From NCBI RefSeq assembly GCF_030013205.1, contig NZ_CP122648.1: DNA of 64,000 nucleotides; one strand, written 5' to 3'. Origin of the DNA: Escherichia coli (GTDB lineage: Bacteria; Pseudomonadota; Gammaproteobacteria; Enterobacterales; Enterobacteriaceae). Numbering within the stretch: the first letter of the stretch is position 1; each line of letters begins with the position of its first letter. Below are positions 59,869 to 61,095 of this stretch, piece by piece. A program made the translations under genes and the position numbers. The notes below the pieces were generated by a model. That model had not been told where the DNA came from and did not search any database. It saw nothing but the letters and a program-made list of their open reading frames with translations.

Positions 59869-61095
59869 TTATCTCACCAGCTTTTCGGCACGCTGGTGTT
59901 TGGCCTGATACATATTGTGATCGGCCAGCTCTTGTAATTTTTCCGCAGAAGCGTGCGCAATGGTCATTGCGTAACCAATGCTTAATGTCATGGTGGTCTG
60001 ATGGCCATTATGAAGATCAAACGGGCGATTAAAGATTTGTGTCAGTGCTGAGCATATCTGCTGCACTTCAGATTCCGACTGTACATCATAGAGCACCATC
60101 GCGAATTCATCGCCGCCCAGGCGGTATGCTTTATGTTGCAGCCCGCCAAATTCAGCTAACCGTTTTGCGATTTCAATCAAGACTCTATCGCCCGTCGCAT
60201 GACCCTAGGTATCATTGATATATTTGAAATTATCGCCATCAAGAAATAGTAACGCCGACGTTTTTCGGGCATCGGAACTGTTCATCAACGTGTTGATACC
60301 GCTACGAAACGCTGCGCGGTTAGCCAGCCCGGTTAATGGGTCATGTAGTGCGGTACGTAGAAGCTGCGCATTTTTGGCCTGTAAACGAAGCTGCCACTCT
60401 TCCATTTCATCCAGCAGACTGTTGAAGTCGAGAGCGAAGCGGTGAAACTCTGCGATACGTTCTTCCGAAACTCGTCGGGAAAAATTGCGGTTGGAACGCA
60501 CATCATGTACGACATCGGTGATGTTTTTTAACGCTTCAACCAGACCATTGTGCAAATGGCGGGTGAGGGTAATTGCGATGCCTGATGCCAGCAGAATGCA
60601 GGCGGTCAGGACAGCGAGCGAAAACCAGATGAAATGGCTGATTGAACTGTCGCGAGCGGTTAAGCGAACTTCGCCAATGGTTTCACCATTGTGACGAATC
60701 GGCTGAACGATGGGGGCAGGGAAGAGCCAGTGGCTTATGAAATTACTGAAAGTATCGCCTGGATCCTTACGGGTGTAATGCCAGGATGCCAGAATATTTT
60801 GCTGCTTATCACGCACTTCTGCAGTTGAAAATTGGCCTTGCTGCCCCAGCGCTGCCAGTGTTTCAGTTGCTGCAGAGCCATCGGCAAAAACGACCGCTGC
60901 TTCCAGACTGTAAGTCATTGTTGCTGCTGTCAGTGCCAGGTTTTTTTGCGCGTACTGTTTCAGGGTCAGCACCGAGGTCACGGAAAGCAGCAACCAGATC
61001 AGCATCATAGTGATAAATATGCTGGTCATACTGATGTTGCGTAATGCTCTTTTAAACGTGGGGCGCTTATTAAGAGAATTATCGTTATCCATCAT
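59869..61095 (-). pseudogene. dgcN: Diguanylate cyclase DgcN (YfiN) interrupted by an in-frame amber codon
   Basis: Continuous minus-strand frame …LFLDGDNFKYINDT-TAG-GHATGDRVLIEIAKRLAEFGGLQHKAYRLGGDEF…; stop codon at 60205-60207 lies upstream of the GGDEF active site; ORF track shows the two halves as 60205..61095 and 59869..60180. Confidence 0.8.

Follow-up and report, generated by a model that had tools for sequence, protein, structure and literature searches.

The gene examined here has its closest described counterpart in intact DgcN (YfiN), known from Escherichia coli K-12, Salmonella and Pseudomonas aeruginosa (TpbB), which is encoded in a yfiR-dgcN-yfiB operon and has a CHASE8-transmembrane-HAMP-GGDEF architecture. 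The intact protein synthesizes cyclic di-GMP (c-di-GMP), an activity held in check by YfiR until reductive or envelope stress relieves the repression (PMC4992967, PMC10127611), and a GGDEF-to-GGAAF substitution alone abolishes both inhibition of motility and the c-di-GMP-dependent relocation of YfiN to midcell and the division site (PMC4992967). In a 64,000-nucleotide (nt) stretch of E. coli DNA (contig NZ_CP122648.1; hereafter the window, on whose scale all window coordinates are given), dgcN occupies the same operon and shares ~97% DNA identity with the K-12 gene. Unlike intact DgcN, its frame is interrupted by an amber codon replacing Trp-297 (W297am), and the catalytic two-thirds of the GGDEF domain would not be made as part of the membrane protein. 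By its sequence, the gene fits the definition of a unitary pseudogene produced by nonsense mutation.

Dcm sites are classical C-to-T hotspots of E. coli, amber mutations of lacI among them, and the lacI amber hotspots at these sites were reportedly described by Coulondre, Miller, Farabaugh and Gilbert in 1978 and by Lieb in 1991. Dcm methylates the inner C of its site, and deamination of the resulting 5-methylcytosine (5mC) gives T in a T:G mismatch, which is corrected only by Vsr very-short-patch repair (PMC2715241). The dgcN amber resembles the lacI hotspots, where a C-to-T transition at the methylated inner C of CCWGG gives an amber codon that recurs far above other sites and is counteracted by Vsr (PMC2715241). 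The two differ in that the lacI mutations come from laboratory mutant collections and are sense-strand CAG-to-TAG changes, whereas the dgcN mutation recurs in natural isolates, affects an antisense C, converts TGG to TAG and lies at a site whose methylation is presumed. A further parallel is rpoS396(Am) of E. coli K-12, an amber polymorphism that segregates naturally in a gene for stress signalling whose loss can be tolerated or favoured; the rpoS amber concerns another gene in another codon context, and laboratory lineages carry it in association with supE. The same gene also carries a premature stop in another host-adapted Escherichia/Shigella lineage, that of Shigella flexneri (S2841), where dgcN and the degenerate dgcE, dgcQ and dgcM are instances of a wider decay of the GGDEF/EAL repertoire among pathogens (PMC11327459, citing Povolotsky and Hengge 2016). 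The S. flexneri stop falls at residue 120, ahead of the GGDEF domain, such that a downstream product could hold the entire domain, and residual c-di-GMP synthesis has been reported (PMC11327459). In the window, by contrast, the stop is inside the domain, and the Shigella position is not a Dcm-linked stop site.

On the minus strand the affected region reads AAT TTC AAA TAT ATC AAT GAT ACC TAG GGT CAT GCG ACG GGC GAT (NFKYINDT-stop-GHATGD). This TAG is the sole internal stop in the dgcN frame (61095-59869), which is otherwise open and continues through RLGGDEF, exactly as had been written in the original prediction, made from the letters of this DNA alone. The identity proposed there, dgcN/yfiN, agrees with Pfam matches of the repaired translation to CHASE8 (residues 45-146) and to the GGDEF domain (residues 249-403), as well as with the gene order: yfiR lies upstream and overlaps the dgcN start by 11 nt, yfiB begins 15 nt beyond the native dgcN stop, and the block sits between yfiL/aroF and rplS, in the same synteny as K-12 b2603-b2605. 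The stop is located 48 residues into the GGDEF domain and 30 codons ahead of the GGDEF motif, and thus, as predicted, precedes the catalytic site. The 296-residue fragment retains two transmembrane segments, the periplasmic CHASE8 domain and the HAMP region, and ends with the initial 48 residues of the GGDEF domain; a continuous open reading frame (ORF) combining CHASE8, the transmembrane and HAMP segments and a complete GGDEF domain is absent from the window gene.

The reality of the base was judged by comparison with orthologues rather than by chance statistics. A sample of 5,426 complete E. coli genomes was used, in 5,425 of which dgcN was found by megablast with the gene. Seventeen of these genomes, all from swine or wild boar and sequenced independently from Korea, Japan, France and other sources, were 100% identical to the window over dgcN. 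The closest intact alleles, those of ST2747, EFF60 and GMF054, differ over 1,227 nt solely at nt 890, having TGG in place of TAG, and ~99% of genomes have TGG at codon 297. The original prediction had suggested a comparison with other strains and had expected an ancestral sense codon one substitution away from TAG, such as TGG; the comparison places TAG in all 17 genomes and TGG in the closest intact alleles. Positions 1-25000 of the window have the same 17 genomes as best matches, with ETEC4069 and ETEC4079 at 100% and at coordinates that fit the position of dgcN. Two of the 17, W13-16 and P15-25, are PacBio-closed edema-disease strains of serotype O139:H1 and sequence type 1 (ST1) (PMC8798679). 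On this evidence the window matches the porcine O139:H1 ST1 edema-disease/enterotoxigenic E. coli clone, in which W297am is fixed (17/17 complete genomes). In one of these genomes, K_EC180, dgcN is already marked "pseudo, internal stop" by the NCBI Prokaryotic Genome Annotation Pipeline (PGAP), and the PGAP internal-stop pseudogene call was present in 11/11 inspected carrier records. Among public assemblies, the exact 296-residue product was found on 116 contigs and the intact protein of the same allele on 729. While every sequence-level claim of the original prediction held, the existing pseudogene annotation, the clone-wide fixation and the Dcm hotspot with its recurrence had not been mentioned there.

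The mutated base is position 60206 of the window, nt 890 of the gene, and the change is G to A on the sense strand and C to T on the plus strand. In the ancestral context, in which the sense strand reads ACC TGG GGT, the plus-strand base is the inner C of a CCWGG site, and its C-to-T change is that of a Dcm hotspot. The dcm-vsr operon was found at a coverage of at least 80% in 5,358/5,426 genomes (98.7%). Five Dcm sites are present in the window dgcN allele, and among the Dcm sites found in dgcN alleles only those at W105 and W297 can yield stops, in both cases via deamination of the antisense strand.

For detection of the allele elsewhere in E. coli, a 33-mer probe found W297-TAG in 36/5,426 complete genomes and on at least 5-6 allele backgrounds, the carriers including Shiga toxin-producing E. 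coli (STEC) O121:H19, one O157:H7, a B2 strain and mouse isolates. A 61-mer probe centred on the mutation had an exact match in 27 genomes, 10 of them outside the swine clone and all ten annotated "internal stop"; this count is too low because the O121:H19 carriers have a single-nucleotide polymorphism (SNP) 13 nt away. Backgrounds were compared over 4.5 kb around dgcN. The swine clone (background A) has an intact twin in ST2747, identical but for nt 890. Mouse isolates M8, RSHH22 and SK6988, with three water or sediment isolates one SNP off (background B), have such a twin in GE3, as does EC21GDE043 (background E) in ATCC 11775, again identical but for nt 890. Strains 2017.06.05CC and E-93 (background C) are 1 nt from the allele of 89-3156, JNEC-KY172 and OkiPb01677, in which codon 297 is TGG, and for O157:H7 BB24-1 (background D) the intact O157 strain PV15-279 differs at one further site. 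The dgcN alleles of backgrounds A-E differ from one another at 8-41 sites. The 33-mer found nine extra carriers, labelled O121, O121:H19 or CDC STEC and having a K-12-type local haplotype, and by sequence these O121:H19-type carriers are a probable sixth background; the backgrounds of O121:H19, EC01 and E203449 were assigned from probe haplotype and strain names only. SNPs specific to each background are retained within 70-140 nt to either side of nt 890, and of the 36 carriers only BB24-1 is labelled O157:H7. The economical interpretation is recurrent mutation, because transfer of the allele would need repeated and extremely short patches. A literature search found no paper describing the W297am allele in O139:H1 or O121:H19, and the recurrence pattern may be unreported. 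RefSeq already marks the pseudogene as such, and the mechanism belongs to textbook knowledge; the case is a new example of a known phenomenon.

The distribution of other nonsense changes in dgcN was established with a set of 33-mers, each centred on one G:C-to-A:T nonsense change (42 classes, W297-TAG excluded) and together covering all local haplotypes of 11 dgcN alleles, under conditions in which wild-type sequence cannot seed a 28-nt word. Thirty genomes were matched: Q85-TAG was present in 7, W157-TAG in 6, the Dcm-linked W105-TAG in 5, Q86-TAA in 3, Q239-TAG in 2, and W34-TAG, Q99-TAA, W297-TGA and Q401-TAG in 1 each, with 3 further genomes matching ambiguously as W34-TGA or Q47-TAA (alignment across the spacer). 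Three backgrounds carry W105-TAG, and one of these has no other difference from the K-12 allele. Of the non-Dcm classes, the two largest are each essentially one clade: 5/6 W157-TAG genomes and 6/7 Q85-TAG genomes lie within 0-1 mismatch of one another over 4.3-6 kb and apart from their nearest intact relatives. The two Dcm-linked classes comprise 8-9 independent events and 41/66 genomes, as against 9-25 events and 25 genomes for the 41 non-Dcm classes together. The per-class excess of Dcm-linked stops is 7- to 20-fold, with a binomial P of 1e-4 to 3e-8, depending on the strictness of event counting. At the same two codons, W105 and W297, TAG accounts for 9 events and TGA, which arises from the unmethylated outer C and is equally inactivating, for 1; with the codons held constant, this comparison tells the supply of mutations apart from selection on phenotype.

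As a neutral benchmark, probes were also run for the non-stop deamination products at all Dcm sites of the dgcN alleles. The synonymous change CTG to CTA was found at L185 in 7 genomes from very diverse strains and at L326 in 5, G113S in 3, L185 TTG in 2, and T296 ACC-to-ACT and P112L in 1 each. Nonsense products at the dgcN Dcm sites are thus at least as frequent as synonymous ones, which suggests that dgcN null alleles are not efficiently purged. As a separate observation on strand, dgcN Dcm-site products are sense G-to-A in 56 genomes and sense C-to-T in 4; with the stop classes left out the counts are 15 and 4 (p ~0.02), a comparison confounded by clonal sampling. The favoured strand is the dgcN antisense strand, the lagging-strand template in the left replichore, and a bias of this direction is what deamination favouring one strand at the replication fork would produce (Bhagwat 2016, as cited in PMC6263442).

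We consider it likely that the window carries a W297am pseudogene that arose at a 5mC-deamination hotspot and is retained under weak selection to keep DgcN. One G:C-to-A:T transition at the inner C of CCAGG, on the antisense strand of dgcN, converted TGG to TAG, most likely when a 5-methylcytosine at 60206 spontaneously deaminated to T and escaped Vsr repair. As a hotspot, the site would have given rise to the same lesion independently in no fewer than five or six lineages of E. coli, in one of which, the O139:H1 ST1 clone, it is fixed. The allele would persist through weak purifying selection on DgcN, the loss of which is perhaps mildly favourable given that the enzyme lacks an autoinhibitory I-site and becomes costly on derepression. 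Of this account, the mutation, its place in a Dcm site, its recurrence with a site-specific excess and its fixation in the clone are direct observations, and methylation and deamination at the site, the loss of enzymatic function and the mode of selection are inferred. Several observations weigh against this account. T296 ACC-to-ACT, the sense-strand product of the same Dcm site, was found in 1 genome only, and the hotspot must therefore be strongly strand-asymmetric or selection must contribute. Independent origins were counted from locus haplotypes rather than from a whole-genome phylogeny, that of O121:H19 from haplotype and serotype names. Probe sensitivity hinges on 11-13 design alleles and may vary between codons, and the presumed methylation of the site draws its dcm support from prevalence across genomes (98.7%) rather than from the clone itself. 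Finally, enzymatic loss is here a prediction, and overexpression of S. flexneri dgcN, despite the stop at residue 120, still led to higher c-di-GMP and to a band the size of the full-length protein (PMC11327459).

Other explanations of the amber codon and of its distribution are less attractive. A sequencing or assembly error in a single genome has a negligible chance of being the cause: a single-base difference is the commonest kind of error, and nothing else was found in its favour, but the identical base in 17 independent clone genomes from several laboratories and platforms, PacBio included (PMC8798679), and in the 116 contigs with the truncated product excludes it. Programmed recoding of the stop was also rejected, though no search aimed at recoding elements was made, the stop being absent from ~99% of orthologues and UAG rather than the selenocysteine codon UGA. 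E. coli has, to our knowledge, no pyrrolysine system. Recombination is frequent in E. coli, and the flanks of the swine-clone locus differ at 24 sites from the closest dgcN twin, a sign of regional mosaicism; it is nonetheless extremely improbable that one ancient W297am allele spread between lineages in very short patches. The SNPs retained on either side of nt 890 would confine each import to less than ~140 nt, changes at the W105 Dcm stop and at the synonymous Dcm sites likewise occur on several backgrounds, and among O157:H7-labelled genomes only BB24-1 is a carrier. Short-patch recombination was rejected as the source of the multi-background pattern in view of the nearby SNPs and of the pattern at the other Dcm sites.

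Positive selection for loss of DgcN, with gut-adapted or pathogenic lineages repeatedly fixing knock-outs, is a more serious candidate for the main cause of recurrence, albeit an unlikely one in place of the hotspot. DgcN lacks I-sites, and its derepression leads to GTP depletion and growth arrest (PMC10127611), a documented cost that might be incurred chronically if the cyclase is derepressed in the reducing gut. Transition-nonsense dgcN alleles occur in ~1.2% of complete genomes, IS1 insertions interrupt the locus in some strains, and truncated DgcN products are found on public contigs, with fragments of 223 residues on 154 and of 178 residues on 50. For the W105-stop fragment the number of contigs is 549, and for the W297-stop fragment of the K-12/B/C type it is 612. 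The carrier clades, O139:H1 ST1 and O121:H19, are successful pathogens, and the frequency of nonsense relative to synonymous products at the Dcm sites points the same way. Selection alone, however, predicts a spread over all 43 classes, whereas the two Dcm-linked positions hold 41/66 genomes and 9 of ~18-34 events, and at both Dcm codons the equally inactivating TGA was seen once against nine TAG events. The value of 1.2% may be typical, being a figure for dgcN alone with no control gene, and pathogen clades are over-sampled. Positive selection is accordingly not demonstrated, because the carrier clades are heavily sampled pathogens and dgcN was surveyed without a control gene. The selection and hotspot readings are compatible and both can be true; neutral or mildly beneficial loss of DgcN is plausible. 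A more elaborate possibility, to which we give little credence, is that the W297 and W105 Dcm sites together provide an inbuilt off-switch, operating at a high rate, for a costly I-site-less cyclase, with loss being adaptive in gut-associated pathogen clones (O139:H1 ST1, O121:H19); the switch might even be partly reversible, which would make the locus contingency-like and methylation-dependent. The notion of reversibility is based on the bias of Vsr very-short-patch repair, which returns CTAGG to CCAGG.

With regard to the protein, the 296-residue fragment is predicted to keep the YfiR-binding periplasmic domain and to be without residues 297-408, including the GGDEF motif. It should make no c-di-GMP, nor bring about c-di-GMP-dependent division or growth arrest. 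The loss of YfiBNR-dependent c-di-GMP signalling put forward in the original prediction is reasonable, because the GGAAF mutant abolishes both known YfiN activities and neither fragment of the window gene has a whole GGDEF domain. Restart at TTG306 or ATG333 was rejected as a route to activity, as the products would be without roughly the first third of the GGDEF domain; given a stop inside this domain, no restart product could hold it entire. Only readthrough or suppression could restore activity, and amber suppression is unlikely. No tRNA gene is present in the window. A concatenated probe for supE/supF-type anticodons, which recovered DH5alpha, C600 and DH1 and hence works as a method, matched 158/5,426 genomes, and among the matches listed (60/158) all were K-12 laboratory derivatives. 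No TAG carrier and no supF-type match was found among these listed matches, the serU, leuX and trpT suppressor forms lying outside the probe. The 158 records with a glnV/glnX CUA-anticodon (supE-type) allele include K-12 MG1655-, NCM3722- and J53-labelled strains as well as mouse-gut O16:H48 isolates, and in those records the tRNA matched by the supE-type probe is without annotation ("none").

It is very unlikely that the gene still functions, whether through amber readthrough, by a suppressor tRNA or naturally, or through a cyclase-active restart product as proposed for degenerate Shigella diguanylate cyclases. The authors of the S. flexneri overexpression experiment suggest readthrough (PMC11327459), and TTG306 and ATG333 are in frame downstream of the window stop. 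Against this, the stop lies within the GGDEF domain, unlike that of Shigella, and while a restart product would miss about a third of the domain the N-terminal fragment would miss the motif; as given above, the window has no tRNA gene and the listed suppressor matches include no TAG carrier. Basal UAG readthrough in E. coli is low.

Both operon neighbours are intact, as the original prediction had stated, each with a full-length family match (Table 1), and the ~330 nt of dgcN RNA left untranslated could subject yfiB to Rho-dependent polarity. Lesions of yfiRNB were also seen in other strains: EFF60 has a frameshift in yfiB, 2018-05-2CC combines an internal stop in yfiB with dgcN W105am, and IS1 is inserted in the yfiR/dgcN locus of LR-24, 2017.11.01CC and PSS-10. 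Strain 401651, which carries W157am, has a prophage integrase and a CI-type repressor directly 3' of yfiB (locus 4445-6033), at a spot normally taken by rplS-trmD-rimM, which points to an insertion or rearrangement. In O145 RM9872 and in 2018-05-2CC, AAG replaces the first ATG of the ATGATG at the start of dgcN and the annotation begins at the second ATG (407 residues); the second Met may therefore be the true DgcN start.

Elsewhere in the window, a type I restriction-modification system occupies 34878-40912 on the minus strand, with hsdR split into two overlapping ORFs, which suggests a frameshift, and with hsdS and hsdM apparently intact. The segment 42509-47885 looks like an ssrA-integrated island carrying the restriction-modification system. 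Two IS1 copies in direct orientation, 90-96% identical, flank an ORF of 203 residues (33037-33648). Within positions 1-25000 some segment is multi-copy, with 19-33 matches per genome in the closest relatives. Coordinates are collected in Table 1.

Table 1. Features of the dgcN locus and of the remainder of the window (coordinates in nt; aa, amino acids; tmRNA, transfer-messenger RNA)
Feature	Position	Strand	Basis or remark
dgcN (yfiN) pseudogene, full 1,227-nt frame with internal amber and native TAA	59869..61095	-	ORF translation; Pfam on repaired translation
Amber codon TAG, codon 297/408 (W297am)	60205..60207	-	Only difference from closest intact alleles
Translatable N-terminal fragment, 296 aa plus stop	60205..61095	-	ORF list, Pfam; exact product in public contigs
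Untranslated dgcN remainder, ~336 nt including native stop; rest of GGDEF domain	59869..60204	-	
GGDEF active-site motif coding sequence, residues 327-331	60103..60117	-	3' of the stop
In-frame restart candidates TTG306 and ATG333	60180 (TTG306); 60099 (ATG333)	-	Within untranslated remainder
Native dgcN TAA	59869-59871	-	
Former Dcm site, ancestral plus strand CCAGG (sense CCTGG), now CTAGG	60205..60209		Inner C is 60206; intact alleles CCTGG at nt 887-891
yfiR, intact, 172 aa, periplasmic repressor of DgcN	61085..61603	-	DUF4154/YfiR-HmsC 1.1e-30, full match
yfiB, intact, 160 aa, OmpA-family outer-membrane lipoprotein	59371..59853	-	OmpA family 1.2e-17
hsdR ORF, 294 aa	37232-38116	-	HsdR profile positions 2-242
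hsdR ORF, 807 aa	34878-37301	-	HsdR profile positions 258-670
hsdS	38175-39368	-	Looks intact
hsdM	39365-40912	-	Looks intact
tmRNA gene ssrA	47523-47885		
Integrase	46127-47437		Directly adjoins ssrA
Large serine recombinase	44288-45844		
Two ParB-like ORFs	42509-44298		
IS1 copy	~32273-33030		Apparently intact; InsA 91 aa, InsB 167 aa
IS1 copy	~34112-34832		Degenerate

With respect to the organism, the O139:H1 ST1 clone, and apparently STEC O121:H19 too, would very probably be without YfiBNR output, that is, c-di-GMP synthesis under reductive stress, division arrest under envelope stress, and the GTP-depleting growth arrest that goes with antibiotic tolerance. This is relevant to studies of biofilm, motility and tolerance in these pathogens. 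The locus also provides an example from natural populations of a Dcm 5mC hotspot repeatedly giving the same null allele. Neither the strain-level nor the hotspot point alters current understanding. The recurrence at the hotspot does mean, however, that identical nonsense alleles in unrelated lineages are not proof of shared ancestry or of selection unless the mutational context has been checked.

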